From: a virus
Taxonomy: Duplodnaviria > Heunggongvirae > Uroviricota > Caudoviricetes
Virus record (IMG/VR): IMGVR_UViG_3300035210_000190
Direction: 5' to 3' (one strand)
Length of the DNA: 64,000 bases
The first letter of the stretch is position 1. The number at the start of each line of letters is the position of its first letter. Both the position numbers and the translations under genes were made by a program. The notes beneath the pieces were generated by a model that saw only the letters and a list, made by a program, of their open reading frames with translations, was not told the DNA's origin and did not search any database. This document shows, one piece after another, positions 164-57,691 of this stretch.

Positions 164-1405
164 ATGTCAAATTTTGTTAAGCAGGCTCTTACATTGGTTG
201 ATAAATCTATCAAGGATCTTGACCTTCCGGTTTTTGAAATTGGTTTAGGTGCCACAAAACCAAAAAATCCTGTGATTCTTCATGCCAATGATCAATGTAT
301 TAAGTCCAACATGAAAGATCAAACCATTTACATTTTGACGCATAATGATATTCATATCGTTGATGACCTTTTGAGTTTAACACCCTATTTGAAGAATAAA
401 ATTCAGCGAGTTGGTCAATTTACTTCTGGAATGTATGGCGAAAAATCTCTTTTTAATCAGCCATCACATAAAGTTGTCCTTTTTTCAAATAAAGACATGA
501 TTGAACTTACCATTATTGGCACAACACTTAAATTTTTATTGAGTGCAGACAATATTAATATAAAATCTAACTTAGTCTGTGAATTTGGAGATTTCCCCTT
601 TTCTGATGTGTCTAGTCTTCATCGCATTATTGATGAATGCCTTGATAAACTTGTTGCAGATGTCCTGACAATTACTGGCTTCCCTAACTCAACGGAAACC
701 TCACTAGAAGTTTTAGATTTTCTAAACAAATCAGCAGTTGAATTGCTGTTACCATCACTTGTTAACAGTCGTTGTTCTTTTGTTAAGCCTAGCGAATACC
801 TTGACGCCTTGAAAATTGACTGGCCTGATTTTGTAGATATCAGAATGAAAGACGGCAAAAATAAAAATATTGATGACAATTTTTTCCCATGTGTGTTCAA
901 GGATGACGAACAATTAATATTTATCAGCACATTTTCTCAATTAATTAAGGATAAAAAATCGCACCACAAGTTCGAACAGCTAGTTGGATTAATGTCTTTT
1001 TACAGTTCTTTACTGGACAGGCCACTTAGTTTCCAAACCAATTTTTTTGGTGTTCGGAAGCCTACGTTTTTTGCAAACAAATCATGTGAACATGCTTTTT
1101 ATTCGTTTACTCTTTCTGACCTAACGCTTTCGGTGGGTCATAATATTGTGAGTGGTGAATTTAATGATGGAATTGCTGTTTATGATGTTAAAGAAGACAA
1201 TGAAACTTACAACTATAGTTTCAACTTTACAGTAGGTAAAAAGAAAGATTATGGAACGACAGTTGAACATTTAACCAATGATCTTGATTATGTGTATAAC
1301 TTTGTATTAGAAGCTATAAAAAAACATATTAATCAGAGCATTAGTAATGTTGATGGAGTCATTAATAAAGAACACATTGAAGTCTTTAAAATGTTAACTT
1401 TTTAA
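164..1405 (+). CDS. hypothetical protein, member 1 of tandem 415-aa paralog triplet
   Basis: long ORF; shared N-term and C-term motifs (DLDYVYN...I..HL.VFKML) with next two ORFs. Confidence 0.7.
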   Translation: MSNFVKQALTLVDKSIKDLDLPVFEIGLGATKPKNPVILHANDQCIKSNMKDQTIYILTHNDIHIVDDLLSLTPYLKNKIQRVGQFTSGMYGEKSLFNQPSHKVVLFSNKDMIELTIIGTTLKFLLSADNINIKSNLVCEFGDFPFSDVSSLHRIIDECLDKLVADVLTITGFPNSTETSLEVLDFLNKSAVELLLPSLVNSRCSFVKPSEYLDALKIDWPDFVDIRMKDGKNKNIDDNFFPCVFKDDEQLIFISTFSQLIKDKKSHHKFEQLVGLMSFYSSLLDRPLSFQTNFFGVRKPTFFANKSCEHAFYSFTLSDLTLSVGHNIVSGEFNDGIAVYDVKEDNETYNYSFNFTVGKKKDYGTTVEHLTNDLDYVYNFVLEAIKKHINQSISNVDGVINKEHIEVFKMLTF

Positions 1406-1449
1406 TATTATTGATAACTAACAAAAAAATCTTGAAGGGTATTTTCAAT

Positions 1450-2667
1450 ATGAACGATAATTTAAAAAGATTAGAAGCACTTATTCAATCATTTACGGTT
1501 GATAAAAACATTCCCATGATTAATATTCGTGAAAAAAATTGTTCTATTAATGGTGAAAACCAATGTTCTTTTGCGACAATAAAAGATCAGGATATTTATT
1601 TTATTGCACATGATGATGTAGACATTTTAGAAAAATATTTAAATTTAAGTGTACAGACTATTCAAAAAATAGAACAACTTAGGCAGTTTGCATTTGATAT
1701 TTATGAAAAAACTAATGAATGTCTTTTTAAACGATCAAAGATTAGACTTTTTCATAATAACACAATAGAATTTGCTATACTTGGCTTAGGTCGTTCAGGA
1801 TTAGTTGTCAATCTAACTGATAATATATTGACTGTTTCTCTTGTGGATATTTACAAAGAAACATCAGTTGAATTCATGTCTTTTGATGACATTGACACTG
1901 TATTGTATACGGCAATGGATTCTTTAACTGCTATGCTTATCAATCAAATTGGATTTGAAGGGAATGACCCACTTTCAGAAGATATTCTTAAATTTATCAA
2001 TAAATCTAAAGAACAACTGTTAGCTGATTATTTTAGTGTATTGCCCTTTAATTATATCGATCCCTCTCAATTGATTAAAGGTAGTTGCAATGATTTAAAC
2101 TATGATATTGAATCCATTAAACTAACAAGTGATAATGCTAGAATTCCATATCATATGATAAATATATTATCAAATGCCATTAAAAAGATTATTCCACGAA
2201 AAGAAGACAGTTATAAAATGAGTCAGCTTATTAGTTTAATGAACTTTTATTATAATCTAATAAATATTAGTCCAGAAAATAATGCTTCTAATATTTCATT
2301 TAAATGTTCAGAAAAGGCTTATATTGGTAAAAATAGTGAACTTGATAATATTTATTATTCATTTCATATTGGTTCAAAACTATCTCTTTATGTTGGTTAT
2401 AATTTAAAACATCATAATGATTATTACGTACCTATTTTAGATGCTAATGCTCCTGAACATGGCACTTATTATAAATTTACAACATCTATCAATAATAAAA
2501 AATCTGTAGATTCATATAAAATTTATGAAACTTATACAGATGATCTTGACTATGTTTACACCACTGTTTTAAACGAAATTAAAAGTGAAATAAATGAAAA
2601 AATTAACAATATTGGCGACACCATTACATCTAGACACCTTGATGTTTACAGGATGCTTGTGGTATAA
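1450..2667 (+). CDS. hypothetical protein, member 2 of paralog triplet (alt start 1411)
   Basis: paralogous to 164-1405 and 2710-3957; start chosen by alignment to paralogs. Confidence 0.7.
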   Translation: MNDNLKRLEALIQSFTVDKNIPMINIREKNCSINGENQCSFATIKDQDIYFIAHDDVDILEKYLNLSVQTIQKIEQLRQFAFDIYEKTNECLFKRSKIRLFHNNTIEFAILGLGRSGLVVNLTDNILTVSLVDIYKETSVEFMSFDDIDTVLYTAMDSLTAMLINQIGFEGNDPLSEDILKFINKSKEQLLADYFSVLPFNYIDPSQLIKGSCNDLNYDIESIKLTSDNARIPYHMINILSNAIKKIIPRKEDSYKMSQLISLMNFYYNLINISPENNASNISFKCSEKAYIGKNSELDNIYYSFHIGSKLSLYVGYNLKHHNDYYVPILDANAPEHGTYYKFTTSINNKKSVDSYKIYETYTDDLDYVYTTVLNEIKSEINEKINNIGDTITSRHLDVYRMLVV

Positions 2668-2709
2668 TGCTCAATCTATTATTTATCCAAAATTTGAGTT
2701 GAGTTTATT

Positions 2710-3957
2710 ATGATTATAAGTGAACGTATCAATGAATTAAGAGCAAACATTACATCATTTGTTTTGGAAAAGAACATTCCAATATTTAACACAAAACAAG
2801 GTTCTGGTCAATCTCTTGATGGTCAAAATCAGTGCTTTTTGGCCGAAATGAATACGATGGATGTGTATTTAATTGCACATGAAGATTTAAATATTGTTGA
2901 AAGATTCTTAAATCTAAATGATGAAACCATGAATAAGATAAACAAAATCAGGACATTTTGCTTTGGTTTTTATGCTAGTAGTCATCATGTGGGCAGTCAT
3001 AAACGTTTAAAAGTTAAACTCATTAATGGCAAAGGGATTGAGTTTTCAATCATTGGTGCTGGATTACCACCTTTTATCATTGATTTAAAAGATTATGAAA
3101 TCGTTGTTTCAGTTATGACGCAAAAACATTCTTCAACTGTGGTTTATTCTGGTGCTGATAATCTTGAAGATAAATTAAATTCAGCACTCGATTTAATAAT
3201 CCCTAATATGTTGAATGAATTAGGATTTTTTGATTGCACAGAAAATTCAAAAGAAGTTATTGATTTTATGAACAAGTCAACTGATGACCTGTTAGTTGAA
3301 CATTTTTCTGGATCAACTTTTAACTATATTAATAAAAATGCCTTACTTTTGAGTGCCTGCTCTGATTTGAATTTAAACTTTGATGATTTGCTTAATTACA
3401 ATAAAGATAATAATAATATTGCTCAACATCTGAAAATACCTCCTAACATGATATCTGTTTTTTCCAAAGTAATTAATAAATTAACACAATCCCCCGGAAG
3501 TGATAAAAAAATTAATCAACTCATTAGTTTGGTTTCTTTTTATAATTATTTAACATCTACTAATAGTGAATGCTCTATTACATTTAAAGCATTTTCAAAA
3601 ATTAGTTTGGTGCCTTCTTCAACTCTTGAATTTGATTATTGCTATTTTAATTTTTCAGATATTCTAAATATTACTTTGGGTCATCAATTGAAGCCTAGTT
3701 ATGAATACAATGGTATTTATGAGCACATAATTGATCAAGAAAATGAAAATGGTTATCTTTATAATTTTTTAATTGATATCGAACATAAAGACCCTAAGCC
3801 GGGTGATAAATTTATTAAATATTTCACCAATGATATTGATTATATCTATAATGTTCTTTTGATGGAGATTAAAAAATTAATTAATAAAACGATCTCTAAC
3901 ACAGAAGATGTTATCACATCAAGACAGCTTGAAGTTTTTAAAATGGCGACTGTTTAA
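2710..3957 (+). CDS. hypothetical protein, member 3 of paralog triplet
   Basis: paralogy; RBS. Confidence 0.7.
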   Translation: MIISERINELRANITSFVLEKNIPIFNTKQGSGQSLDGQNQCFLAEMNTMDVYLIAHEDLNIVERFLNLNDETMNKINKIRTFCFGFYASSHHVGSHKRLKVKLINGKGIEFSIIGAGLPPFIIDLKDYEIVVSVMTQKHSSTVVYSGADNLEDKLNSALDLIIPNMLNELGFFDCTENSKEVIDFMNKSTDDLLVEHFSGSTFNYINKNALLLSACSDLNLNFDDLLNYNKDNNNIAQHLKIPPNMISVFSKVINKLTQSPGSDKKINQLISLVSFYNYLTSTNSECSITFKAFSKISLVPSSTLEFDYCYFNFSDILNITLGHQLKPSYEYNGIYEHIIDQENENGYLYNFLIDIEHKDPKPGDKFIKYFTNDIDYIYNVLLMEIKKLINKTISNTEDVITSRQLEVFKMATV

Positions 3958-5035: not shown

Positions 5036-5048
5036 TAGAACAGTTGTA

Positions 5049-5075
5049 AAAAAACCAGCTTCGGCTGGTTTTTTG
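5049..5075. terminator. bidirectional rho-independent terminator (CCAGCttcgGCTGG)
   Basis: hairpin flanked by A-run and T-run. Confidence 0.7.
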
Positions 5076-5088
5076 TTGTTTTCATCTT

Positions 5089-6117
5089 TTAGTTTTTTGA
5101 CTTCACATAAATTTCTTTCAAGCTGCTCACATCGAAATGTGGAGCCGTTGCATAAGAGAAGCTTGGACAGATTCTGTTACCACCCGCTATACCCTGACCA
5201 CCACAAGGCCCACCAGCACCCGCGACAGGCCATAATCCAAAGGTGTCTGTCATATCAGTAGGTCTTAAACCTATCCAACCAGCAGCTTCTGGGTAAAGTG
5301 TTTTAGACCCAATAGGTGTGTTTACTGTGAATCCACCTCCAATGTTTTGACCTTTGTTGAAGGTGCTGAATGTTTGCCAAGCACCAAACATACTAGTCCA
5401 TGTTGCGTTAGCATTCTTTACCATCATAGCAGAACTTATATTTACCGAACCACTTGGTATTACTGGATACGCTGTTGTATTATCTGAATAACTAAGTATT
5501 TTACCCGTTTTCATTGCGATATCTTGGAAGTTACGTTTAGTAGAGCCAGCCGGTAATTGTGTCCAACGACCTACCAATATCCAATTACCTCCTGCAGTGT
5601 TCATATCAACATAAGCCTTAGCTTTATTACCTAAACCATCAGTAATGTCGTAGATACCACTTTGTCCTGCAATTGGATTCATGATCATTAGATAACTTGT
5701 AGCCGTTCCCACTGCCTCTTTGGTATTCGTCAAGTTGCTCATTTCCTTACCCGATGCTTCATCGTTATAAGCAACACCTTTATCACGAATTTCACCCGTT
5801 ACAGCATTTTTTTCTTGCTTGATATAACTTTCATATTTCATACCCTTACAGTTTGTTGCGGTCTGAGTGTAGGTTGTATTGATCAACTCATCTGCTGGTA
5901 ATGGTGCCCAATTTGTACAACCGTATCTATATAATGGATCGTCTTTTGGCAAATCAACTAAACCTAATGATTTAGGTGCAATTTCTAACCACTCAACTTG
6001 TTTGAATTTTATTTCGACAGTGCCCATTATTACTTCGTATTTTGCGTAAGATATTCCGCAAAAAAGAGCAAGTGAAGCCATTGATAATACTTTTACCTTC
6101 TTGTTTGTCATATTCAT
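5089..6117 (-). CDS. secreted protein with signal peptide, Cys-repeat (CTxWxP...TQTAxxC) family, Gly-rich C-terminus
   Basis: N-terminal signal peptide MNMTNKKVKVLSMASLALFCGISYA; shares repeat module with 14742-15686 and 56615-57481; extremely AT-rich upstream flank 6118-6250. Confidence 0.75.
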   Translation of the reverse strand: MNMTNKKVKVLSMASLALFCGISYAKYEVIMGTVEIKFKQVEWLEIAPKSLGLVDLPKDDPLYRYGCTNWAPLPADELINTTYTQTATNCKGMKYESYIKQEKNAVTGEIRDKGVAYNDEASGKEMSNLTNTKEAVGTATSYLMIMNPIAGQSGIYDITDGLGNKAKAYVDMNTAGGNWILVGRWTQLPAGSTKRNFQDIAMKTGKILSYSDNTTAYPVIPSGSVNISSAMMVKNANATWTSMFGAWQTFSTFNKGQNIGGGFTVNTPIGSKTLYPEAAGWIGLRPTDMTDTFGLWPVAGAGGPCGGQGIAGGNRICPSFSYATAPHFDVSSLKEIYVKSKN

Positions 6118-6298
6118 GTTAATCTTTTGTTTTTATTATTTATACATATCTTAATATTTTTAACAATATATTTCAAGTATTATAGTATATATATTTATTT
6201 ATTTTCTTTAATATAGAGGAAAAAAATAAAAAACACCTTTACATAAAATCTGTTTTTTGATATGATACACCTACTAAAAATACACAGGATATAACAAA

Positions 6299-7414: not shown

Positions 7415-8002
7415 ATGACTATGACGGCTATTGAACTTCGCAAAGACCTACTTATTTGGGTGGATCTTGAAACGACTGGCTTAGATATTGCTGACAAGTT
7501 GTCGGGTGCTCAGTATCACAAAATCCTTGAAGTCGGTATTCATATTACCGATTCGAAATTCAATATCATTGATGAAGGCTTTGAAGTGGTTATTCATCAT
7601 GACGTTGAAGAAGCCAAAGCACTGGCTAATGATTACGTCCGTAACATGCACATCACCAGTGGGTTATGGGAGCGTGTGGATGCCTCTCCTGTTTCATTGG
7701 CCGAAGCCGAGAAAATGATCTTGGCGTATATCGATCAGTTCAATATTGCCCCCGGTTCTAGCCCTATTTGTGGTAACAGTGTTTCGCTGGATCGCAACTT
7801 TATCATGGCCCAAATGCCAACCTTTGCCAGCATCTTGCATTACCGCATCATTGATGTAAGCACTCTCAAAGAAATCGTTTGGCGTGTAAAACCAGAAGTA
7901 GGCATGATGGTTAAGAAGCAAGAGAAACACCGTGGACTTGAAGATATTAAAGAGTCTATTGCCGAATACAAAATCTATGAAGAGTTCTTTTTTGTTAAGT
8001 AA
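7415..8002 (+). CDS. orn: oligoribonuclease (Orn) homolog, DEDDh 3'-5' exonuclease
   Basis: motifs LIWVDLETTGLD, SPICGNSVSLDRNFI, HYRIIDVSTLKEI, HRGLEDIKESIAEYKIY closely match bacterial Orn. Confidence 0.85.
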   Translation: MTMTAIELRKDLLIWVDLETTGLDIADKLSGAQYHKILEVGIHITDSKFNIIDEGFEVVIHHDVEEAKALANDYVRNMHITSGLWERVDASPVSLAEAEKMILAYIDQFNIAPGSSPICGNSVSLDRNFIMAQMPTFASILHYRIIDVSTLKEIVWRVKPEVGMMVKKQEKHRGLEDIKESIAEYKIYEEFFFVK

Positions 8003-9239: not shown

Positions 9240-9313
9240 GGCTGTTTGTAGTTCAGTCGGCAGAACTCCGTCGAAAAACGGTAGTCGTGGGTTCGAATCC
9301 CATCATACAGCCT
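9240..9313 (+). tRNA. tRNA-like gene with atypical anticodon arm (4-bp stem, 6-nt loop CGAAAA); identity undetermined
   Basis: acceptor stem, D-arm GTTC/GAAC, canonical T-arm GTGGGTTCGAATCCCAT; co-transcribed with basic peptide gene; terminator at 9320-9350. Confidence 0.5.
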
Positions 9314-9504: not shown

Positions 9505-9816
9505 ATGAAAAAGATCATGTTTGCATGTTTACTTGCAGTCCCATTAACAGCTATTGCTGTCATTGCTGACACCACTGATGTCATTAAATCTAGAAATGAT
9601 CAATTAGCCACATTGGTTAAAGAATCATTTTACTCTGATGTGTCTCGTTTGAACTTGACGCCTGAACAATACACCACCATTGTAAAAAAAATCAGAACAA
9701 CCGATGAAGGACTGACGACTGAAATTAAAGAAGTCTTAAATGATGACCAAAAAGATACATTTGAAATTATTATGGCTGAGAAAAAAGAAGCTATGGGTGA
9801 TAAAGTTGGCTTTTAA
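9505..9816 (+). CDS. small secreted protein (signal peptide)
   Basis: MKKIMFACLLAVPLTAIAVIA signal peptide; RBS AGGAG. Confidence 0.65.
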   Translation: MKKIMFACLLAVPLTAIAVIADTTDVIKSRNDQLATLVKESFYSDVSRLNLTPEQYTTIVKKIRTTDEGLTTEIKEVLNDDQKDTFEIIMAEKKEAMGDKVGF

Positions 9817-10001
9817 AATTTCAATGACAGACTAAACTTAAAAAAGAAACCTGTGATGGTTTCTTTTTATTTTACTTTTATATAATTACTTTTTATAAAA
9901 ATATCTTTTTTTAGATTAATTATATATTTAATAATTACGCTTGCCTTTTTACTTTAATACTATTTAATAAGAAATAAATAGTTCATTAATTTGAGGTAAA
10001 A

Positions 10002-10859
10002 ATGACAAAAAAATATATTTTAGCGTTAATTGCTCTATCCAGTTTAGGCACTTTATCGCAAGCTGATTATCAAATTCATATTCCAATTCAACATGCAATT
10101 TCTTTCAATGATAACACTTCCAGTGGTGGCTCAGGCGGTAGTGGTGGTGGTGGATTAGTTTTTACTGACCCTACTATATTGGCTGCATATGAAGCTAAAT
10201 GTGGTTCGTTTCCTAATAAAATAAACCCTTTGACTGATCCTATACGAGACTATGACATTAGTTGTGGTGATTATTCAAATAGAAATCTTTCTGGTTACAT
10301 GCTTGATAAAACCGGTATGCTTTTTACTAATTTTGCAAATTCAATATTAGATGGAGCTATATTAGGTAATTCTAACTTAACTAACAGTAATCTATCAGGA
10401 GCATCCCTAATAGGCACTCAGTTTACCGTAAATGGAGAAAGCACTGCATTAACGAATGCCGATGTTAGTAATGCTAACTTAACAAATGCTTATATGGATA
10501 AATCATATTTAGAAAAAACTAATTTTACTGACTCTAATTTAACAAGTGCTGTATTAACTAATGCTGCTTTTGTTGGTGCAAACTTGACCAATGCTAACTT
10601 AACGAATGCTAATTTTGATACTTCCTATGTCACTGACACGAACTTTACTAATGCAAATTTTACAGGAGCTATATTAACTAATACTGCATTTATTAATACG
10701 AACCTAACTAACGCAAATTTGATTGGAGCTGATCTCAGTACGAGTAGTTTTACCAATGTTGATTTCACTAATATCTTGTATGATTCGACTACAAAATGGC
10801 CTTCATGGTACACACCACCAAAATCAAGCAATGGATATCAGTTCACACCGCAGTGGTAA
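10002..10859 (+). CDS. secreted pentapeptide-repeat protein
   Basis: signal peptide plus long run of A(N/D)LTN pentapeptide repeats; Gly/Ser linker. Confidence 0.75.
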   Translation: MTKKYILALIALSSLGTLSQADYQIHIPIQHAISFNDNTSSGGSGGSGGGGLVFTDPTILAAYEAKCGSFPNKINPLTDPIRDYDISCGDYSNRNLSGYMLDKTGMLFTNFANSILDGAILGNSNLTNSNLSGASLIGTQFTVNGESTALTNADVSNANLTNAYMDKSYLEKTNFTDSNLTSAVLTNAAFVGANLTNANLTNANFDTSYVTDTNFTNANFTGAILTNTAFINTNLTNANLIGADLSTSSFTNVDFTNILYDSTTKWPSWYTPPKSSNGYQFTPQW

Positions 10860-11037: not shown

Positions 11038-11493
11038 ATGATTTTAACTATCGAACTTGTACCTAAATCTTGCTGGTTTTCCAATTTGAGGGATCACCTC
11101 ACAGAAGCTCAATGGAAAGAAGTCAAACTCAGCACATTTAAGGCTGCAGATAATCGTTGTGAAATTTGTAATGGTGTTGGTGACAAGTGGCCGGTTGAAT
11201 GTCATGAGGTTTGGGAATATGACGATATCAATAAGGTACAACGTCTGGTGAGAACTGTTGCTCTTTGTCCTCCCTGCCATCAAGTGAAACATATCGGCAT
11301 GGCGATGGTGACAGGTCGTTACAATCATGCTAAATCTCATTTCTCGGCTATCAATAAAGTCCCCATGAGACAAACAGAACGCTATATTGAAAAAGCTTTC
11401 AATTTATTTAATGACCGATCAAAGTTTCAGTGGAAACTTGACGTTTCTTGGATTAATGAACACTTCGGATTTATAATAAAGGAAAAACGTTAA
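11038..11493 (+). CDS. HNH-family endonuclease (putative homing endonuclease)
   Basis: CEIC...ECHEVWEYDD...N...LCPPCHQVKH zinc-ribbon/HNH pattern. Confidence 0.5.
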   Translation: MILTIELVPKSCWFSNLRDHLTEAQWKEVKLSTFKAADNRCEICNGVGDKWPVECHEVWEYDDINKVQRLVRTVALCPPCHQVKHIGMAMVTGRYNHAKSHFSAINKVPMRQTERYIEKAFNLFNDRSKFQWKLDVSWINEHFGFIIKEKR

Positions 11494-11669
11494 TATATTT
11501 ACTTTTTCATAATTCAACTTAAACTATATTAATAACATTTTGGAGTATTATGTTTTTTTCTTTATTTTTAATATCATATTTGATATTAAGTTTAACATTG
11601 AGTATCGTTTATTATTACTATTATGCTTCATTTTATTTGGTTGCAGTTAATCTTATCATGATGATATTA

Positions 11670-13240
11670 ATTGTAAATAACCCCGACCTGAAGGACGGAG
11701 CTTTTGTTTTTCTAGAAGCCAAAATTAGTGTGTAAACACTCTAATCTTATTTTCTTGGGGCAGTTTACTATGCCTCTACTGGCTTCTTCGAAATATTGAT
11801 CTCTCCACATTTCAAAATCACCTTTACTTTTTAACCATTTTCTCAATATATTCCCTGCTCCATTCACATCTGCATTTAGCAACTTTCCTAATGAGGATTT
11901 GAACAATCCTCTTTTGGATCTTGTTCCTAAATAGCTCTTATGTTTTTTAACTTCTTCTAAATCTAAAAAGCTTGTTTTTGAAGTATATGATTCTTCATGT
12001 TTAGCAAAAAGCAAACCTTTACTTTTAGCTTTATATTCAAGCATGTTTTTAAATTTAAAAAATGGGACAGATACAAAACTTTGATTATTAACAGACCCAA
12101 TATTGATGGATTGTTTCTGTTCTTTATTTTCACCAACTAGTATGGTGTTGAGATTGTTTTTCAAACAATACTCCACAATATAATTAGTTGATCGATGATA
12201 ATAATCGTTGATTTTGTTGGTTCTATTACGAGATAGTTTGTTTTTCTTTTTAATCATAGCACTAACATCTTGGTTATTGTTTCGACCAAGATCTATTTTA
12301 CTTGATAATTTAGCGACTTTCTTATTATACCATTGGTTTAGGGATTTTAGATAACGCCCATCAAGGAGGATGGACGAACCATTGGTGGAATTAAGGCATG
12401 CACCTAAATTATTCAAGCCAAGGTCAATGGAAAGATAACGACCGTTATCTTCCATTGCCTTATCTTCTTCAACTTCATAGACTACTTCTACTTTAAATTC
12501 TTCTCCATTACTTTTAGGCAAGATACGCACTTCGTTTATCTTTTTTATATGTTTTGGAATTGAAATTTCAAGTTTAGTAAGTAAATGAGGATATTCTTTT
12601 TTAAAGTTCTTTGAACAATTAATAACAACTCTATTAACAGTATCTTTTTCTAGTTCTGTTTTATTTTTAACAAATCGAACACTACGCCCTTGAATAACGA
12701 TATTGGAATAGGTTGGTTTATCTTTTTTTCGATTCTTCTTGTATCGTGGTAAATTAATGGTGTTGGTTTTGTTTACTGACTTTTTAGCTTTCAAACTACC
12801 AAAGAAAGCCTTCATATCTGAGTAGGCCACTCTTCTTATTTGTTGAGAACAATCATTCAGTAACAATGAAAAGTTCTCATTAAGTTTAGTGGCATGATAG
12901 AGTTCAGTATCAGAAGGCATTTTTTCTTTGTTGAAGAAAGCTTGACGTAAAGGATATAAGCAAACATTATACATTTGAGAAGCATGGACAGAGAGCATTT
13001 GAACTAATTCTTTTTCTTCTGGGCTAAACGATTTACACCACATAGAAAGTGTGCGTAAATATTTAACTCTTTTTTTAGATTTATTAGCCATAACACTCCA
13101 AAAGCCAACTAATAAAATAGTTGACTAAAATATGGTTATTAGTATACAATATAAAACTTAAAAGTCAACTATAATGAGTTGGCAAAAAAACAACCCTATT
13201 CCTCCCCTGCCTGAAGGAAGAGGTATCCAAGGGTTTAACT
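11670..13240 (-). mobile_element. tnpB-only IS200/IS605-family element (IS1341-like) with similar imperfect hairpins at both ends in direct orientation; boundaries approximate
   Basis: TnpB ORF flanked by CCCCGACCTGAAGGACGGAGC (11681-11701) and CCTCCCCTGCCTGAAGGAAGAGG (13200-13222), plus 86-bp imperfect palindrome 13104-13190. Confidence 0.6.
11712..13091 (-). CDS. tnpB: TnpB (IS605 OrfB-family RuvC-like RNA-guided nuclease/transposase accessory protein)
   Basis: RuvC-I IDLGLNNLGA, RuvC-II ESYTSKTS, RuvC-III NADVNGAGNI motifs; 459 aa. Confidence 0.85.
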   Translation of the reverse strand: MANKSKKRVKYLRTLSMWCKSFSPEEKELVQMLSVHASQMYNVCLYPLRQAFFNKEKMPSDTELYHATKLNENFSLLLNDCSQQIRRVAYSDMKAFFGSLKAKKSVNKTNTINLPRYKKNRKKDKPTYSNIVIQGRSVRFVKNKTELEKDTVNRVVINCSKNFKKEYPHLLTKLEISIPKHIKKINEVRILPKSNGEEFKVEVVYEVEEDKAMEDNGRYLSIDLGLNNLGACLNSTNGSSILLDGRYLKSLNQWYNKKVAKLSSKIDLGRNNNQDVSAMIKKKNKLSRNRTNKINDYYHRSTNYIVEYCLKNNLNTILVGENKEQKQSINIGSVNNQSFVSVPFFKFKNMLEYKAKSKGLLFAKHEESYTSKTSFLDLEEVKKHKSYLGTRSKRGLFKSSLGKLLNADVNGAGNILRKWLKSKGDFEMWRDQYFEEASRGIVNCPKKIRLECLHTNFGF

Positions 13241-14604: not shown

Positions 14605-14741
14605 TTTGACATTTATTGTGAAAAAAGAGAAGCTTCGGCTTCTTTTTTTTGTATGGTAAAAAAAAAGTAATTTTATATAACAATAAATTGACACAATATA
14701 AAACTACTTGTATTATAGTATTAATAATAATAATAAAAATC

Positions 14742-15686
14742 ATGTCCATTAAAAAAATACTCTTAGTTCCTGTACTTTCATTGTTAGGAATGAATTCTTT
14801 CGCAGAATATCAAATACAATATCCAAATGTTCCTGTAATCTTTAAAGATCTTGGTCAATGGGTTCCAACGAATCCTGTCATCTCTATTTGGGTTAATGTG
14901 GGAACTCCACATGATTGTACAAGTGCTGCACCACTTGAGAACACACAACAACTTGGTGTGTCTTATGAAAAAACATTCTCGGGCTGTAAGCAGTCCCAAG
15001 AAAGAACTGTAACCACTTCTGAAAAACAAACTGTTACTGGGGCTATTCGTAATCAAGTCAGCACCAAAGAAACACAAGTGTTAACTGATGCTAGTTATAA
15101 AGTAAATGCTATTGGCACTACCGATTTTGGTCAATGGTTAGAAACTGCTCCAGTTTATACAGGTTGGAGAAATCTTGAATCTCCACATGATTGCACAAGT
15201 GCTGCACCACTTGAAAACACACAAACACTTGGTTCAACTTATGTAAAAACATTTTCTGGTTGTAAACAATCACAAGAGCGTGATGTTACGACATCTGAAA
15301 AGAATACTGTTACAGGCAATGTTCGTAACGTGAAAACAACGAAGGAAACTCAGCTTATTACTGATGCCACTTATACTACAAATGCCACAGGCACTAAAAT
15401 AGTTAAAGAATGTGGATATTCAGCAGCAAGTGGAGCTTTTGCTAGATGGTATGATATTGCAACTTATGATGGTTATACAACTACTTATGGTATGGGCTTA
15501 CAATGGGCTGGTGCCACACTTGTTAACACTGCAAACAGCAGCACAACTTATCCAAAATCTGCGAATTATGTCAAATCTGGCTATGTTTACACACGCGGTG
15601 CGTTTAAAGAGAAATCTGGTCATAATGATAATATACGCACTTTTTACTACTATTATGAAGTCTGTAGAGAACCTGTTGCACCATAA
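14742..15686 (+). CDS. secreted protein with two tandem ~90-aa Cys-containing repeats (HDCTSAAPLENTQ...FSGCKQSQER...TVTG.IRN)
   Basis: signal peptide MSIKKILLVPVLSLLGMNSFA; internal duplication; perfect TTGACA-17-TATTAT promoter 14689-14717. Confidence 0.75.
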   Translation: MSIKKILLVPVLSLLGMNSFAEYQIQYPNVPVIFKDLGQWVPTNPVISIWVNVGTPHDCTSAAPLENTQQLGVSYEKTFSGCKQSQERTVTTSEKQTVTGAIRNQVSTKETQVLTDASYKVNAIGTTDFGQWLETAPVYTGWRNLESPHDCTSAAPLENTQTLGSTYVKTFSGCKQSQERDVTTSEKNTVTGNVRNVKTTKETQLITDATYTTNATGTKIVKECGYSAASGAFARWYDIATYDGYTTTYGMGLQWAGATLVNTANSSTTYPKSANYVKSGYVYTRGAFKEKSGHNDNIRTFYYYYEVCREPVAP

Positions 15687-15824
15687 TTGAAAAACAATTG
15701 AAAAAATTAAAAGAGGCTTCGGCTTCTTTTTTCTTGCTTAAAATATGGTTTTTATGTATAATAATCTCATTGAAATCCACTATAAATATTGCCGAAAGGC
15801 ATACTTTTAAAACGGAATATTAAC

Positions 15825-31580: not shown

Positions 31581-32435
31581 ATGCTTAAAAAGATTTTTGC
31601 TTCTCTTGTTCTTCTGGCCTCAGTTGCCCTCAGTGGGTGTTCTGAAACCGTAGATGCGGGTTTTGTCGGTGTGGTTGAAAAACACCCCTACTTCGGCACT
31701 GGTGGTGTAGAGAAAGAAGTTTATAAAGGTGGTGATCGCTATTATATCTCGCCAACTTCCATCATGCACCGCTATGACATTAAACCTATTCAGAAAGAAG
31801 AGGCGTTTAATGACTTGGCAACCATTAACTCGACTCCGGTAGACTTTAAAGCGGTGGTTCGTTATGAAATCATTCCTGAAAAAGCTTACATCTACCATGA
31901 AAGCTTTGGTAATGCAATGTATGATAATAACTTGAAAAAAGACTTTCAAAACATGCTTCGTGACTTTGCTCGAAAACACACTGTGAAGCAACTCACTACA
32001 GAACAGACAGTGACTGACTCAGGTGAAGACGATGTTTACAAGAAAATGGTTGACATTGTTGTAGCAAAAGGCATTCCGGTTCGAATTTTGGCTGTAACTA
32101 TCGGTGCAATTATGCCGCCAGATGAAGTTCTTGCAGAAACTGCTCGGACAGAAGCTCAAATTCAACGTGCATTAACTGAAATTGAACGAGCGTCTGCTGA
32201 AACTCAGCGAAAAGAAGCTGAAACCAACAAAGCTGCTGCTGACAATGAATACATGAGCAAAATGAAAATGACACCTGAGCAATACTTGCGAGGTCGTGAA
32301 ATTGACAACCAGCGTGAGATTGTTGAAACGGTCAAAAAGAAAGATAACGTCAACATGTTGATTGTCTTGGGTGGTGGTGGCTCCCTTCCACAAGGGGTAA
32401 CAGTTCCACAGCCCATCGTTCAACCAAAGCAGTAA
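31581..32435 (+). CDS. SPFH/band-7 domain lipoprotein
   Basis: lipobox LSGC; SPFH-like core and C-terminal coiled coil AETARTEAQIQRAL. Confidence 0.6.
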   Translation: MLKKIFASLVLLASVALSGCSETVDAGFVGVVEKHPYFGTGGVEKEVYKGGDRYYISPTSIMHRYDIKPIQKEEAFNDLATINSTPVDFKAVVRYEIIPEKAYIYHESFGNAMYDNNLKKDFQNMLRDFARKHTVKQLTTEQTVTDSGEDDVYKKMVDIVVAKGIPVRILAVTIGAIMPPDEVLAETARTEAQIQRALTEIERASAETQRKEAETNKAAADNEYMSKMKMTPEQYLRGREIDNQREIVETVKKKDNVNMLIVLGGGGSLPQGVTVPQPIVQPKQ

Positions 32436-32486
32436 AGCAACACAAAGAAAAAGGCCACTAGTTGGCCTTTTTTGTTGTTTTAATTA

Positions 32487-32906
32487 TTATTTAATAGTTG
32501 GATACCTGCAGACTTGATAGTAATCATATGCACTATCAGTTCTAGCTAATTCACCAGTTATATAAACATATCCTTCGGCTGTAAGTGGGAATTTTAATTT
32601 TTTTGTATATCCTGAATCTACATAGATTCTGTTTTGCCATCTTAAATATCGAATTGAGTTTCCATAAGTTATATGATTTCTAAAGACTTTTGTCCATGTT
32701 TTTGACTCACTATATGTATCACATTCATAGCCATCTGGCTTGGTTGGTTCCGTTACAATTGGTGGAATTGGTGGAACTTGTGTATCATTAATAAAAACTA
32801 TATCTCCTTTATTAAGATGTGATTCTGGCTTTATTACCACTTCATAACTTGCAAGTGATATTGATGTAATCATTAAAATTGACAGACTTATGATTATTTT
32901 TTTCAT
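32487..32906 (-). CDS. secreted protein (signal peptide), C-terminus related to Cys-repeat secreted family
   Basis: MKKIIISLSILMITSISLASY signal peptide; C-term YYQVCRYP resembles GYQVCQVN of 56615; AT-rich flank. Confidence 0.65.
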   Translation of the reverse strand: MKKIIISLSILMITSISLASYEVVIKPESHLNKGDIVFINDTQVPPIPPIVTEPTKPDGYECDTYSESKTWTKVFRNHITYGNSIRYLRWQNRIYVDSGYTKKLKFPLTAEGYVYITGELARTDSAYDYYQVCRYPTIK

Positions 32907-33044
32907 TTTTAGTATTTTTTGTATTTATTCTCTTATATCATAATACTTTTATTTATTATAAAGTCAAAAAAATCATCCTAATTGTGTTTGCTATAAATCA
33001 CATTTTATTGTATAATCAGCCTACATTTACGAAGAGGATTCGCC

Positions 33045-33832: not shown

Positions 33833-34954
33833 ATGTCCAGCATCTTCCCCCGTATTGAAACCCTTGATGATATGATTCCTCATATCAAAGACCGTGCCTA
33901 TATTTCTCTTAACAAACAGGATAACGGTGCCGACATCGTTTGCTACAACATCAGCAACGGTGACTCTTTCAACACTCCGGTTGAAAAGGAAGCTCGCGGT
34001 ATTACCTTTGACGACAACGGTAAAATACTGTCGCGTCCATTGCACAAATTCTTCAACTTGGCAGAGCGTGCAGAAGTCCAGCCAGCCGTTTTGGATTGGA
34101 ACACTATGGTTGCCGGGTTTGATAAAATGGATGGCTCCATGATTACCACAGGGCTGTTCAAAGGCGAATTCTTTGCTAAGTCCAAGAAGTCTTTCAAATC
34201 GGATGTGGCTGTTTCGGCAGAAGGCTTTGTGTCTCGTAACCAGAAATACTACGAGTTCACCAAATATTGCTCTCAGGCCCAACTGACGCCAATTTTTGAA
34301 TTCACTTCGCCAAAGCATCGTATCGTTTTGCGTTATGACGAAGACAACATGACATTGCTTCATGTTCGTCACAACATCACAGGCGATTACTTAATGCCTG
34401 CTGAAAAAGACCAACTGGCGTTGTTGTTTGATATTCCTGTTAACAAGCCACTGTTTGGTGAAGAATTTGATTTGGCTTCCCTGTTGAAGTCGCTGAACAC
34501 GGTTGAAGGGATTGAAGGCTATGTTATTCAATTCGTTAACGGTAACATGATCAAAATCAAAACCAAATGGTATATGAATCTCCATCATGCGGTTAGCTTT
34601 GTTCGTGAACGTGATATTGCTCGTTTGGTGGTCGAAGAAAAACTTGATGATTACATTGCTTATTTGTCGCTAAACTCGCCAACGGCTGATTTGAGTGAAA
34701 TTTATCGTATCAATGACGCTATCAAAGCTTCGATTGAAGCGTTGTCGAAAGAGGTTGATGATATTGCTGCTGCATTCCAAGGTGTTGACGTGAAAACTGC
34801 AGCAATCCAACTCAAAGGCCACAAACACTTTGGTTTTGTTATGGGGGCAATTCGTGGTCACAAAAACGACTACCTGTATCACTACTCTAAAAACCATCTG
34901 GTGGATTGGTCGTTGGACCAAATTGAGCTTGGCGACTTGTCCGCTCCCGTTTAA
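33833..34954 (+). CDS. RNA ligase, Rnl1 family (divergent paralog A)
   Basis: KFFNL, nucleotidyl-lysine motif DKMDGSM, EGYVIQFVNGNMIKIKTKWYMNLH matching T4 Rnl1 motifs. Confidence 0.8.
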   Translation: MSSIFPRIETLDDMIPHIKDRAYISLNKQDNGADIVCYNISNGDSFNTPVEKEARGITFDDNGKILSRPLHKFFNLAERAEVQPAVLDWNTMVAGFDKMDGSMITTGLFKGEFFAKSKKSFKSDVAVSAEGFVSRNQKYYEFTKYCSQAQLTPIFEFTSPKHRIVLRYDEDNMTLLHVRHNITGDYLMPAEKDQLALLFDIPVNKPLFGEEFDLASLLKSLNTVEGIEGYVIQFVNGNMIKIKTKWYMNLHHAVSFVRERDIARLVVEEKLDDYIAYLSLNSPTADLSEIYRINDAIKASIEALSKEVDDIAAAFQGVDVKTAAIQLKGHKHFGFVMGAIRGHKNDYLYHYSKNHLVDWSLDQIELGDLSAPV

Positions 34955-35912: not shown

Positions 35913-37046
35913 ATGGAGATTCACATGACTTATCAACAAGAACTGTATGCCCAACTGATGAACCTGTTGGTTACTAATCCGGGGTCTTTTAAATACCGTG
36001 ATGAAATCTCGGCGGTAGACGGTGGGACTTACCGTGTCTTCAACTATGACATTCCAAAGCACTCCGAATTCAAACTTCCGGGTGCCAAGGATTGCCGTGG
36101 AGTCATGTTCTACATGGGCGGTTCTGAGCCAATGCTGGTGGCATTGCCAATGCAGAAATTCTTTTCCTTGGGCGAAACCCCTGAAACGCAAAAGGTGAAG
36201 CCAGAAGAAGCCGACCACGCTTATCTGAAACCCGATGGCTCGTTGCTCACCAGCTATATTTCTCCGATCAATAATACTCTTTACTACAAGAGTAAAAAGA
36301 AGCCTACGTTTGCTGATTACGGCCTTGTTGAACAGTCTATCAGTCCAGAATTGCACGCAGACGTTGAACGGCTGACCCGCACAGGTGTTTCGGTTGACTT
36401 GGAACTGACCACGCCGAAAAACCGTGTTTTCATCGAATACACTACCTACGAAGTTCATGTGTTGAAAGCCCGCGACATGAACACAGGGGCTTATGTGGAC
36501 ATTCGTTCGGCAGAATTTGCCGCAGAATATCCGGTTATTGCGGCCCATTTGGTGAAACGTATCCCTATCAATGAACTCAACGTTAATGACCCTGAAATTG
36601 AGGGTTATGTGGTTGAATTTGGCCCTGACATGTATAAGGTCAAGACCATTCCTTACCTGAAAATGTCGGCAGTGGTTAACATTCAGGATCGTTCGAAGGA
36701 ACGTCAGGTTATTTATGAAGCAACTCTTCATGAAATTCTGGATGAAATTCGTTCGCTGTATCATTACCGGACACACAGCGACAACTTCCCACTGGCTGAA
36801 ATTCTGGCTCGCTTGGATGAAGTCGAAGACTACGCCCGTAAAAGCTACCATTACCTTGTTCGCACGGTTGATAGCTTCCACGATGAGCATAAAGGTTTGG
36901 AACGTGGCGATTACGCTCGTAAAGCCAAAGAAGTGGCTCCATTGCTTCTGTCGGTGTTGATGAGCAAGTTTTCGGGTGACGAGATTGATTACAAACAAGC
37001 CGCTATCATGGTGTTTGCTCGTAAACAAGTGCCTATCCCCGAGTAA
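35913..37046 (+). CDS. rnlA: RNA ligase 1 (T4 Rnl1-like; likely start 35925)
   Basis: TYRVFNY, DCRGVMFYM, QKFFSL, LKPDGSLL (lysine motif I), EGYVVEF...YKVKT match T4 Rnl1. Confidence 0.85.
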   Translation: MEIHMTYQQELYAQLMNLLVTNPGSFKYRDEISAVDGGTYRVFNYDIPKHSEFKLPGAKDCRGVMFYMGGSEPMLVALPMQKFFSLGETPETQKVKPEEADHAYLKPDGSLLTSYISPINNTLYYKSKKKPTFADYGLVEQSISPELHADVERLTRTGVSVDLELTTPKNRVFIEYTTYEVHVLKARDMNTGAYVDIRSAEFAAEYPVIAAHLVKRIPINELNVNDPEIEGYVVEFGPDMYKVKTIPYLKMSAVVNIQDRSKERQVIYEATLHEILDEIRSLYHYRTHSDNFPLAEILARLDEVEDYARKSYHYLVRTVDSFHDEHKGLERGDYARKAKEVAPLLLSVLMSKFSGDEIDYKQAAIMVFARKQVPIPE

Positions 37047-51938: not shown

Positions 51939-52010
51939 GGGCCGGTGGTGTTTAACGGGAACAAGTGTCCTTAACCGGATGAGTTCTGGGTTCGAGTCCC
52001 AGTCGGTCCT
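51939..52010 (+). tRNA. tRNA-like gene, atypical anticodon arm (5-bp stem with two G-U pairs, 6-nt loop UUAACC); monocistronic with own promoter and terminator
   Basis: acceptor stem GGGCCGG/TCGGTCC, D-arm TGTT/AACA, canonical T-arm CTGGGTTCGAGTCCCAG; terminator 52029-52053. Confidence 0.5.
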
Positions 52011-52149
52011 CCTAATTTAAAATACAGATAAACCGCCTTCTTGGCGGTTTTTTGTTTTAACACTTTTGAATAATAATCATTTTTCACTACCAGTATTATA
52101 GACAACAAAAAGCCCGCTTCTGCGGGCCTTTTATATTACTGTTGGAAAA

Positions 52150-56539: not shown

Positions 56540-56614
56540 TATTTCAGCTAACTTTGATTATATTAGGAATAACAAAAAACCCCACCCTTGGGGTTTTTGT
56601 TTGTATATTATAGT

Positions 56615-57481
56615 TTAGTTAACTTGGCAAACTTGATATCCGCCTGACTGATACGGCCCACGTCTGTATAGTTTACCATCAGTTCCTCTTACATCTGGAT
56701 AGTTAGTTAAGTAGTCTGGATTGACATAATTTCTATATACAATATTACCTTGCCATAAAACAGTTAATTCTGTAATGTAACCTTCATCTTCTTGATAACC
56801 CCATTCATAAGAACCCCATGCGAAGTTACATACTGTAGCTGGTTTCGTTCCAACGCTTGTTCTCGTTGAAGTAGCAGCAATTGATTGGTTTTCGATAATA
56901 ACTGAACCCACGTTTCTGATTGCTTGTGTGGTTGTTTCTTGCTCACGATTTTGTTTATTGCGAGTTTGTGGTTGCTGACAATCTGTGGCAGTTTGTGTGA
57001 ATGATTGACCAGATGTGACCGTTGATGTGGCTGGACTCCAGTTCGTGCAGCTTGTTACACCCCCACTGTTAACCCATGTGGTGACATCAGCAGCAATCGC
57101 CACCCACGTTTCTAATGTGCCTACAGCACTTCGTGTTTGAGTTGTGTTTATACTTTGGGATTCATTGTAAGGATTTCCAGTGTTACGAATACTGCCTGAA
57201 ACATTATCAATTTCTCGATCTTGCACTGTTCTGGTTTGATCTTGCTTACAGTCGCTTGCGGTTTGTGTAAACGTATTTCCGATGGTTATTGCAGATACTG
57301 CAGGACTCCAATTTAGACATGAATGCACACTTCCTGTGTTTTCCCAATCTCCGTATAATGGTGAATTGGCAGCCCAACTGGCAAATCTTACTGGTTCATC
57401 TAAGTTAAATTTAACAACATATTCAGCGTGTATTATGCCGCCAGCTAATGCCAGCGTTAATGATAGTAATGTTTTTTTCAT
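56615..57481 (-). CDS. secreted protein with two Cys-containing repeats (C.NWSPA...TQTA.DC.Q.QTR), same family as 14742 and 5089
   Basis: signal peptide MKKTLLSLTLALAGGIIHA; internal duplication; AT-rich upstream flank. Confidence 0.75.
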   Translation of the reverse strand: MKKTLLSLTLALAGGIIHAEYVVKFNLDEPVRFASWAANSPLYGDWENTGSVHSCLNWSPAVSAITIGNTFTQTASDCKQDQTRTVQDREIDNVSGSIRNTGNPYNESQSINTTQTRSAVGTLETWVAIAADVTTWVNSGGVTSCTNWSPATSTVTSGQSFTQTATDCQQPQTRNKQNREQETTTQAIRNVGSVIIENQSIAATSTRTSVGTKPATVCNFAWGSYEWGYQEDEGYITELTVLWQGNIVYRNYVNPDYLTNYPDVRGTDGKLYRRGPYQSGGYQVCQVN

Positions 57482-57691
57482 AAATATTTTATTATTTTTT
57501 TACATTCTATCATAATATTATATAAATAGAAGATTTTACCATCAAAAAAAACTATTATAACTTGGAATATCAATAAAATTTCTTTAATTAATTGTCTATA
57601 TTTTCTCTCTAAATACTTTAAATAATGAAAAAATGTTGTTTTAAAAACTGTTGTTTGATATAATGGTTCATCAATCACTTGGAGACACATT

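Follow-up and report, generated by a model that had tools for sequence, protein, structure and literature searches.

What role do four genes for signal-peptide-bearing proteins play in a 64,000-nucleotide stretch of DNA that is listed in IMG/VR as a virus of the Caudoviricetes (record IMGVR_UViG_3300035210_000190)? We refer to the whole stretch as the window and to the genes as A (5089-6117, minus strand, 342 aa), B (32487-32906, minus strand, 139 aa), C (56615-57481, minus strand, 288 aa) and D (14742-15686, plus strand, 314 aa). A first-pass annotation, made from the letters alone, had placed four open reading frames (ORFs) at these positions and strands, and we found all of them there. It had read them as moron-like genes of a virulent phage whose products might act in superinfection exclusion, receptor masking or remodelling of the cell envelope. 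We favour another explanation, to which we give an even chance: A-D would be exported, disulfide-stabilised rod-and-head binding proteins that form a new family of fibrillar-adhesin architecture. The new element is the stalk domain; the rod-and-head architecture of bacterial surface adhesins is already known.

The proteins share a signal peptide and a two-cysteine module

We looked at the N-termini with a simple rule for the n-, h- and c-regions of signal peptides. All four were flagged, with a basic n-region, a hydrophobic core and a small-x-small site (A, 6043-6117; B, 32847-32906; C, 57425-57481, all minus strand; D, 14742-14804, plus strand). Alignment with homologues placed the cleavage sites after ..[TS]QA or ..SYA. 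The earlier proposal that the proteins are secreted is probably right. The ATG of gene D sits within a longer TTG-start ORF that begins at 14649.

In blastp comparisons C matched D over the full length (E=3e-33), while A matched C (E=1e-13) and D (E=6e-10) through one segment. By these scores the similarity among A, C and D lies far beyond chance. The segment is a module with the core C-x-N-W-x-P...F-T-Q-T-A-x-D-C-x-Q-x-Q-x-R...I-R-N...G-T, in which the two Cys, the Trp, the Pro and the Gly-Thr are invariant. The first-pass annotation had described it as a two-Cys module of about 85 aa in three proteins; the sharing and the two Cys stand, and the length is closer to 90 aa. Protein A has a single copy (aa 42-140; 5698-5994, minus strand), seen by blastp, profile and alignment. 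The tandem duplication reported for two of the proteins is there in C (aa 35-124 and 125-214; 57110-57379 and 56840-57109, minus strand; 49% identical to each other) and in D (aa 39-128 and 131-220; 14856-15125 and 15132-15401, plus strand; 68% identical). A tblastn search of the window with the four proteins returned no further family copies.

Gene B has no such module. Its residues 61-136 (32499-32726, minus strand) match a hidden Markov model (HMM) built from the ~80-aa C-terminal domain of C/D homologues, from one end to the other (positions 2-80 of 81; 23 bits). Since it also has the N-terminal leader described below, we consider B a true family member.

The module is predicted to form a stiff stalk

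Searches with the four proteins found nothing for the module in Pfam, PHROGs or NCBIfam, and a module profile found nothing meaningful among PDB sequences, which agrees with the earlier remark that the module was unfamiliar. A match to Utp4 (E~0.08) in the PDB profile search was judged to be chance. When a profile built from the five modules of the window was searched against 1.84 billion representative proteins, it retrieved 620 clusters at E<=1e-3 and 405 at E<=1e-10. The relatives carry up to 26 tandem copies per protein and reach 3,139 aa, and a member on plasmid pMPPla107 has 10 copies in 982 aa. The module is therefore a genuine array-building repeat domain.

A structure prediction of the repeat, which the first-pass annotation had suggested, was made for protein C with AlphaFold2 (AF2) and 27 homologues. 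The predicted local distance difference test score (pLDDT) was 86 overall, above 95 in both modules and 54-60 in the leader. In the model, the module consists of antiparallel strands of 16-23 residues that form long beta hairpins. Its nearest structural neighbours, the SasG/Aap/G5 stalk repeats, resemble it weakly. The prediction suggests that the module is a previously undescribed stiff extracellular stalk repeat.

Thrombospondin type-1 repeats (TSR) are, like the module, elongated and Cys-stabilised extracellular repeats that occur in arrays. They have about 55 aa and 6 Cys, in contrast to 90 aa and 2 Cys in the module. Sub-threshold matches to the C-x-x-W-S-P...C core of TSP1_2 (PF23260) accumulated in 8 of 80 multi-repeat relatives. 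These matches were confined to the core C-x-A-W-S-P...F-T-Q...C and covered about 30 of the 66 profile positions; no single repeat was significant and the cutoff was reached only through the summing of repeats. The window proteins had no match at E<=1, so this is a resemblance and not membership. The TSR fold, with three strands, a Trp-Arg ladder and three disulfides, likewise did not hold for the module.

The C-terminal domains resemble binding heads

The C-terminal 200 aa of protein A (5092-5685, minus strand) carry the signature G-I-Y-D-I...A-Y-V-D-M-N-T-A-G-G-N-W-I-L-V-G-R-W. A profile of A and 13 homologues, searched against the PDB, found only fibrinogen-related proteins, the intelectin XEEL (E=0.005), tenascins and angiopoietin-2; all 12 matches (E up to 0.2) were fibrinogen-related domains (FReD) or intelectins. 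Here G-I-Y-x-I...Y-V-D-M-x-T-x-G-G-N-W-I-L-V-x-R-W aligns with XEEL, tenascin and angiopoietin. The AF2 model of A had a pLDDT of 76, with about 50 in the distal third of the head and less than 50 in the leader. Its best 50 Foldseek matches were all fibrinogen-related domains (E 2e-3 to 2e-2). The NCBIfam model NF040941 ('GGGWT_bact', 'fibrinogen-like YCDxxxxGGGW') matched at E=4.8e-5 and 23.3 bits, against a cutoff of 30, and Pfam Fibrinogen_C did not match the head. Since the profile, Foldseek and NCBIfam routes, which are independent, agree, these three sub-threshold lines together make a fibrinogen/intelectin-like lectin domain likely.

The heads of B, C (56618-56836, minus strand, head HMM) and D (15405-15677, plus strand) are of another kind. 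They are small beta domains between two invariant Cys, with the motif C...W-x-G...G-Y-x-Y-T-R-G...Y-x-[IV]-C-R-x-P.

Head diversity extends to the relatives. The domains found beside the module include F5/8C discoidin, NedA-like galactose-binding, LRR, Big_1 with Invasin_D3, FG-GAP and RCC1 propellers, ILEI, chitinase-N and beta-galactosidase ABD2, as well as two DUFs and one uncharacterised family with one match each. Where examined, the accompanying binding domains were C-terminal. No domain recognisable as a toxin was found in the module relatives. Judged by sequence, the module's partners thus appear to be binding-type domains and not toxins or enzymes.

A conserved leader follows the signal peptide

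The predicted mature proteins begin with similar short peptides: KYEVIMG in A (within 5995-6042, minus strand), SYEVVIKP in B, where a Pro-rich linker follows, EYVVKFNL in C (57380-57424, minus strand) and EYQIQYP in D. We described this leader by a loose pattern of a signal peptide, a small residue, any residue, Y or F, and alternating hydrophobic positions, which matched 113 of 239 collected proteins. Their consensus is [EDSA]-Y-[TIM]-[VIL]-K-[IYV]-P-L-[ED]. At position +2, where the pattern itself demands Y or F, Y was found in 98 and F in 15 proteins; K at +5, P at +7 and L at +8, which the pattern does not require, were the commonest residues. Other lineages have other leaders, namely A-N-I-I-R-[MT]-x-A-P in pMPPla107, pBASL58 and P0111, and D-S-W-K-P-I-R or S-T-W-E-K-I-R in the pBT2436-type megaplasmids. 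The leader was of low confidence in both AF2 models (A and C) and unpacked against the module.

Within the window only five ORFs have the leader, four recognised by the pattern scan and D by eye. The fifth gene (10002-10859, plus strand, 285 aa) has no stalk module. Its signal peptide (10002-10064, plus strand) is followed by the leader DYQIHIPIQ (cleavage context ...SQA/DYQIHIPIQ), a Gly/Ser linker and a head predicted as a pentapeptide-repeat beta-helix (Pfam Pentapeptide PF00805, E=9e-30, 102 bits against a cutoff of 20). Since a pentapeptide-repeat protein carries the signal peptide and leader of the family, the leader seems to be a portable piece to which unrelated heads can be attached. 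It is conserved, lineage-specific, unstructured and located at the end opposite the head; therefore, it resembles a tether or export tag, and a docking or export signal is its probable role.

Taken together, the favoured mechanism would be as follows. The Sec signal peptide would carry the protein across the inner membrane, and the two invariant Cys of each module may pair in the oxidising envelope. The ~90-aa module, with its long antiparallel beta strands, would act as a stiff spacer that can be stacked head to tail and not as the business end. Ligand binding would be left to the variable C-terminal domain: lectin-like in A, a Cys-clamped beta domain in B, C and D, and a pentapeptide beta-helix in the fifth gene. 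The first 8-9 mature residues could serve as a docking or export peptide which tethers the N-terminal end of the rod to a partner in the envelope.

Several observations weigh against this explanation. The signal peptides were called by a rule of thumb and not by SignalP. All scores that assign the head of A to the FReD group are sub-threshold (Foldseek 2e-3 to 2e-2; NCBIfam 23 against 30 bits), and the head of B, C and D has no relative in Pfam, PHROGs or NCBIfam, nor through a profile search against the PDB. The window yielded no anchor domain, partner gene or secretion system; Pfam and NCBIfam revealed no anchor in the window proteins, which also have no lipobox. Moreover, the window proteins carry only 0-2 modules, so their 'rods' would be short.

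The absence of an anchor, together with the lectin-type heads, would also suit unanchored secreted lectins or matrix proteins that cross-link polysaccharides or cells after export, for example by type II secretion, with the N-terminal peptide being simply the fold's first strand and not a tether. One megaplasmid member has a DsbD-like gene and one for a 'type II secretion system protein' nearby, which fit such proteins as well. However, conservation is far higher in the N-terminal peptide than elsewhere, yet this peptide is not packed on the module in either model, and a rigid spacer of variable length is best explained with one end fixed. We therefore consider unanchored lectins unlikely, although they are the most serious competitor of the tethered rod-and-head proteins.

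Pilin-type genes near relatives and the export signals of type IVb pili

Genes of pilin type were seen around a few relatives. P0098 has a Flp-pilin N-terminus instead of a signal peptide. A member on a Pseudomonas aeruginosa megaplasmid directly follows a 300-aa prepilin-type gene, and the pBASL58 member lies two genes downstream of an A24 prepilin peptidase. On the P. putida plasmid pNY5709-IMP (locus L029, 3573-6193 and 10418-12106), the member is flanked by two genes with a TonB C-terminal domain; a prepilin-type 'type II secretion' gene and one for a DsbD-like disulfide reductase are also close by. For the family genes in L029 and L030 the start codons given in the annotation seem too far downstream, and the open frames include a signal peptide.

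Pilin or prepilin-peptidase neighbours were found at loci L029, L030 and L031 only; no prepilin motif or pilus gene was seen in the window ORFs, L001-L006 or L028. The nearest known precedent for a leader-like signal is given by TcpF of Vibrio cholerae and CofJ of enterotoxigenic Escherichia coli (ETEC), whose export signal docks, through a key aromatic, on the minor pilin at the tip of a type IVb pilus (PMC10120004, PMC6048534). Like the family, they combine a cleavable Sec signal with a short, disordered and conserved mature N-terminal peptide; their signal varies with lineage as the family leader does, and the key aromatic, Tyr5 in TcpF, recalls the Y/F at mature position 2. The family has no sequence similarity to them, they have no stalk repeats, and, unlike in their case, the window contains neither a pilus gene nor a prepilin motif. 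By this analogy, the leader could be a portable tag by which rod-and-head proteins with interchangeable heads dock on an envelope machine that the element encodes, such as the tip of a type IV-like filament. The Flp-pilin N-terminus of P0098 and the prepilin-type genes or prepilin peptidase beside megaplasmid members are hints in its favour. We consider this speculative and rather improbable. If it were true, a giant element would use a library of heads on autonomous cassettes to retarget the adhesion of its host cell or of its own transfer apparatus.

The family occurs on megaplasmids

The first-pass annotation had asked for the distribution among related phages. Protein C had no tblastn match in 50,697 phage genomes, and a scan of IMG/VR with patterns that the window itself would match found no relative. 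Instead, PLSDB contained 106 plasmids with the family, 92 from Pseudomonas, 13 from Vibrio and 1 from Stutzerimonas. Plasmid pMPPla107 (972 kb) has 22 family sites, with three members, one of them with ten modules, in a single 7-kb stretch. Megaplasmids of 380-640 kb from P. aeruginosa and P. putida have 1-6 sites, annotated as 'Ig-like' or 'invasin domain 3-containing'. GTDB genomes were scanned with the hand-made pattern FTQTATDC, which gave chance matches at 14 of 16 loci and four members on the P. fluorescens plasmid pMPCFBP13716 (971 kb). In P. shirazensis a member lies in a chromosomal island with genes for a recombinase, KfrA, a replicase and a single-stranded DNA-binding protein (SSB). 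The family is thus typical of giant Pseudomonas plasmids, and its known carriers are megaplasmids rather than phages.

Homologues were also present on metagenomic contigs of 0.14-1.9 Mb (L002, L003, L006). These consist of long runs of small genes with 32-36% GC, nearly all of them without a Pfam match, and scattered among the loci are genes for RND efflux, an AI-2E transporter, OmpA and a Fapy glycosylase. The loci recall the make-up of pMPPla107 and pBASL58, which have about 1,000 mostly hypothetical genes, 44-54 tRNAs, RND pumps and a GC content below that of the chromosome (PMC6482414). The long contigs may be plasmid or phage-like elements of Mb size, or chromosomes with integrated elements. 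We found nothing relevant in the literature on Mb-scale phages.

This distribution bears on the role first proposed for the proteins, that of periplasm-resident phage products which are made during infection and prevent superinfection, mask receptors or reshape the envelope from within. The Sec-type signal peptides and the independent promoter/terminator cassettes are consistent with it, as is the phage-like content of the window (two T4 Rnl1-type RNA ligases, an SCTP-2-like ORF and Phage_T4_Y00F upstream). However, the family is absent from the phage genomes and IMG/VR, common on megaplasmids and present in a chromosomal island, and it shows no similarity to known exclusion proteins in PHROGs. 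Arrays of up to 26 stacked modules and the lectin or adhesion heads of the relatives are hard to reconcile with a blocker inside the periplasm and, therefore, suggest a reach-and-bind role. Nothing points to exclusion or receptor masking, and we regard a periplasmic blocker as very unlikely.

Hardly credible is a TonB-box mimic whose acidic-aromatic-hydrophobic mature N-terminus would beta-pair with the C-terminal domain of TonB in the periplasm and hijack or block TonB-dependent uptake: the mature N-terminal position and the alternating hydrophobics, both features of TonB boxes, are loosely matched and two TonB-C-domain genes flank one megaplasmid member, but the motif xY[TI]VK[IY]PL departs from the consensus [DE]T[ILV][VT]V, TonB neighbours were seen at that locus only and at none of the other megaplasmid loci viewed, and rods and heads would be left unexplained.

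Comparison with fibrillar adhesins

Fibrillar adhesins such as SasG/Aap (G5-E) and intimin/invasin consist of tandem stalk repeats in variable number and a distal binding domain; the proteins described here have such repeats and a distal domain that would bind a ligand. The polarity is also that of intimin/invasin, where a rod of Big_1 domains is tethered at its N-terminus and ends in a C-terminal lectin-like head; some module relatives contain Big_1 and Invasin_D3 themselves. In contrast to the known adhesins, the stalk of the window family is new, with no G5, Big or other Pfam match, and each repeat would be clamped by a disulfide. No beta-barrel, sortase, RTX or other known anchor was found, only the 9-residue N-terminal peptide, and the window members are very short, with 0-2 repeats. 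Monzon et al. 2021 (PMC8286594) defined fibrillar adhesin-like proteins and noted that a known anchor is lacking in about half of these. The multiple tandem stalks used in that definition are present in C and D (two each), while A has one, and the module is not among the stalk domains listed there. The definition also calls for an adhesive domain distal to the anchor, for which the FReD/intelectin-like head of A and the F5/8C, LRR and Invasin_D3 domains of relatives are candidates.

The 620 clusters (at 50% identity) represent an undescribed extracellular repeat domain which annotation pipelines label 'hypothetical' or at best 'Ig-like', and the short conserved N-terminal tag may act in Gram-negative bacteria as a new signal for tethering or export. 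The family marks Pseudomonas megaplasmids, among them the pMPPla107 group of ~1 Mb and the multidrug-resistance megaplasmids found in P. aeruginosa and P. putida, and also very large ORFan-rich metagenomic elements. Therefore, it could bear on how such giant elements alter the surface behaviour of their host or their transfer.

The genes lie in autonomous cassettes, one of which has moved or been replaced

The window has a mean GC content of 37% and a gene flow of about 79:11 in favour of the plus strand, to which three of the four genes run antisense. The spacers upstream of A (16.6%), C (18.1%), D (19.0%) and B (23.2%) are much richer in AT. The earlier figure of about 15-20% GC for the flanks holds, roughly, for the upstream side only; the downstream spacers have 26-34%, and the gene bodies have 31-41%, like the window. 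Five of the seven islands of less than 20% GC in the window precede the five leader-bearing genes.

The island upstream of A spans 6118-6298 (minus strand) with a candidate -35/-10 pair at 6148-6176, and that of C spans 57482-57691 (minus strand, 18% GC), is shared with a divergent DUF2807 gene and contains the candidate promoter TTGATG-17-TATAAT (57517-57545, minus strand). Upstream of D (14605-14741, plus strand, 19% GC) there are the terminator of the previous gene (14621-14650) and the candidate promoter TTGACA-17-TATTAT (14688-14716, plus strand). The region before B (32907-33044, minus strand, 23% GC) has a candidate promoter with TTGACT at 32937-32967. For the fifth gene the upstream region is 9817-10001 (plus strand), and a 150-bp scan placed 9801-10026 below 20% GC.

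Each of the four genes was said to have its own promoter and terminator. The terminators are of textbook form, a G+C hairpin with flanking A- and T-runs: a bidirectional one between A and a convergent plus-strand gene (5048-5074; AAAAAACCAGC-cgaa-GCTGGTTTTTTT), and those of B (32448-32473, minus strand), C (56573-56598, minus strand) and D (15709-15732, plus strand). Sigma-70-like hexamers lie 30-60 nt upstream of A-D, but the scanner counted as many in shuffled sequence. Since AT-rich DNA gives as many hexamer pairs by chance, the promoters are only plausible. A Shine-Dalgarno sequence is absent from A-D and present in 59 of 90 crude gene calls, including most of the convincing plus-strand genes; the fifth gene has one, unlike A-D. 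Rfam recognised no known RNA in the AT-rich leaders of the cassettes. The same cassette style, AT-rich upstream DNA without a Shine-Dalgarno sequence and an own terminator, was found at homologous loci L002, L003 and L006, and in a weaker form at L001 (35.5% GC upstream, a hairpin without T-run). Such an autonomous cassette would uncouple expression from the surrounding operon-like gene flow.

We compared the window with its relatives. One of them (L032, ~82% nucleotide identity) has A, the pentapeptide gene and D at the same places and in the same orientations, so these genes are not recent pickups. The window has a TnpB gene (OrfB_IS605 and Cas12f-like TNB; 11712-13091, minus strand) with an AT-rich stretch just downstream (11451-11676); because it is absent from the collinear L032, it is a recent insertion. 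In L033 (80-86% identity in the flanks) the site of C has no family gene but a 430-bp stretch in which a tRNA-like sequence and a terminator lie. The DUF2807 gene is retained there, and a C-like gene (69% nucleotide and 61% aa identity) is found at a distance of about 7 kb, flanked by homologues of genes just past the end of the window. This empty site and the diverged copy show that the C cassette moves or is replaced and that it diverges faster than its surroundings. Cassettes could thus be relocated or replaced between related elements. A 358-aa 'variant' of C in L036 was rejected as a repeat change, as it is an extension by gene calling.

The cassettes are like phage morons in having their own terminator, a plausible sigma-70-like promoter and an opposite orientation, and also in that presence and position vary between related genomes (C in L033). 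The moron reading thus holds for the autonomous unit, for three of the four orientations and for the presence or absence of C. Unlike morons, A, D and the pentapeptide gene are stably syntenic, the GC content of the gene bodies is that of the window, and the phage nature of the carrier replicon is unproven.

Phage or plasmid?

The window has almost no annotatable genes. Recognisable are TnpB, the pentapeptide protein, an SPFH lipoprotein, two T4 Rnl1-type RNA ligases, an oligoribonuclease and the DUF2807 protein, together with two or three tRNAs. ARAGORN placed tRNA-like genes, with no anticodon assigned, at 9242-9312 (plus strand; Rfam agrees, 44 bits) and 51939-52012 (plus strand; no Rfam support). 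Hints of a phage come from the RNA ligases, whose best match is in Ralstonia jumbo phage RsoM2USA (41%), from one ORF that resembles Salicola phage SCTP-2, and from the Phage_T4_Y00F gene immediately upstream of the window. No PHROG-classified or phage structural gene was found among the 20 window ORFs scanned, and megablast of 12 kb of the window against phage genomes gave no match.

Thirteen concatenated window ORFs had no match among PLSDB plasmids either. Other ORF sets matched only orn, SPFH, DUF2807 and RNA ligase, and we rejected the window as a pMPPla107-group or other PLSDB plasmid. The JGI metagenomes 3300034156-196 and 3300034691 contain exact copies of window proteins, and the contigs concerned reach the 0.2-1 Mb class. 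We consider the window part of a very large, ORFan-rich mobile element; since no structural or PHROG gene was seen and the 13 ORFs match no plasmid, we do not name it phage or plasmid. The virulent phage of the first-pass annotation is unproven, with the family found in plasmids and not in phage collections, and caution is needed in taking the window for one.

Other genes of the window

The T4 Rnl1-type RNA ligase genes (33833-34954 and 35913-37046, plus strand) lie 1 kb apart. Just upstream of the window (L037, 4648-7000) there are AAA_33 (kinase-like), CinA and Phage_T4_Y00F genes, which may form an RNA-repair gene set with the ligases. In pMPPla107, an RNA 2'-phosphotransferase adjoins the stalk-family cluster.

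Three tandem paralogues of about 415 aa lie upstream of gene A (164-3957, plus strand; L028, 1-5092), and four tandem hypothetical genes of about 410-437 aa directly precede the 982-aa family member of pMPPla107. The two sets showed no similarity by tblastn (E<=1e-3), and the parallel may be coincidence.

The SPFH/Band-7 lipoprotein gene (31581-32435, plus strand) is convergent with gene B. Its nearest plasmid relatives (38-39%) are on 290-380 kb Vibrio plasmids, whose region was rejected as a relative of the window because only the SPFH gene is in common. A 31% relative lies on pMPPla107, about 16 kb from the three-gene family cluster (216.8-223.2 kb). The DUF2807 gene ('autotransporter adhesin head GIN domain'; 57692-58603, plus strand), which diverges from gene C in the same AT-rich island, encodes a protein with weak relatives on Pseudomonas and Ralstonia megaplasmids.

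The oligoribonuclease (RNase_T) gene (7415-8002 in the window, equal to L009 1116-1697; compare L008 1116-1703) differs among metagenome copies: some have it intact, as does the window, and others have it broken into two ORFs of about 95 aa, either by a frameshift polymorphism or by an assembly error.

The T4 late-promoter motif TATAAATA was not enriched in the window and showed no strand bias (5 vs 5). TATAAT was counted 75 times on the plus strand and 35 times on the minus strand, paralleling the strand bias of the genes.

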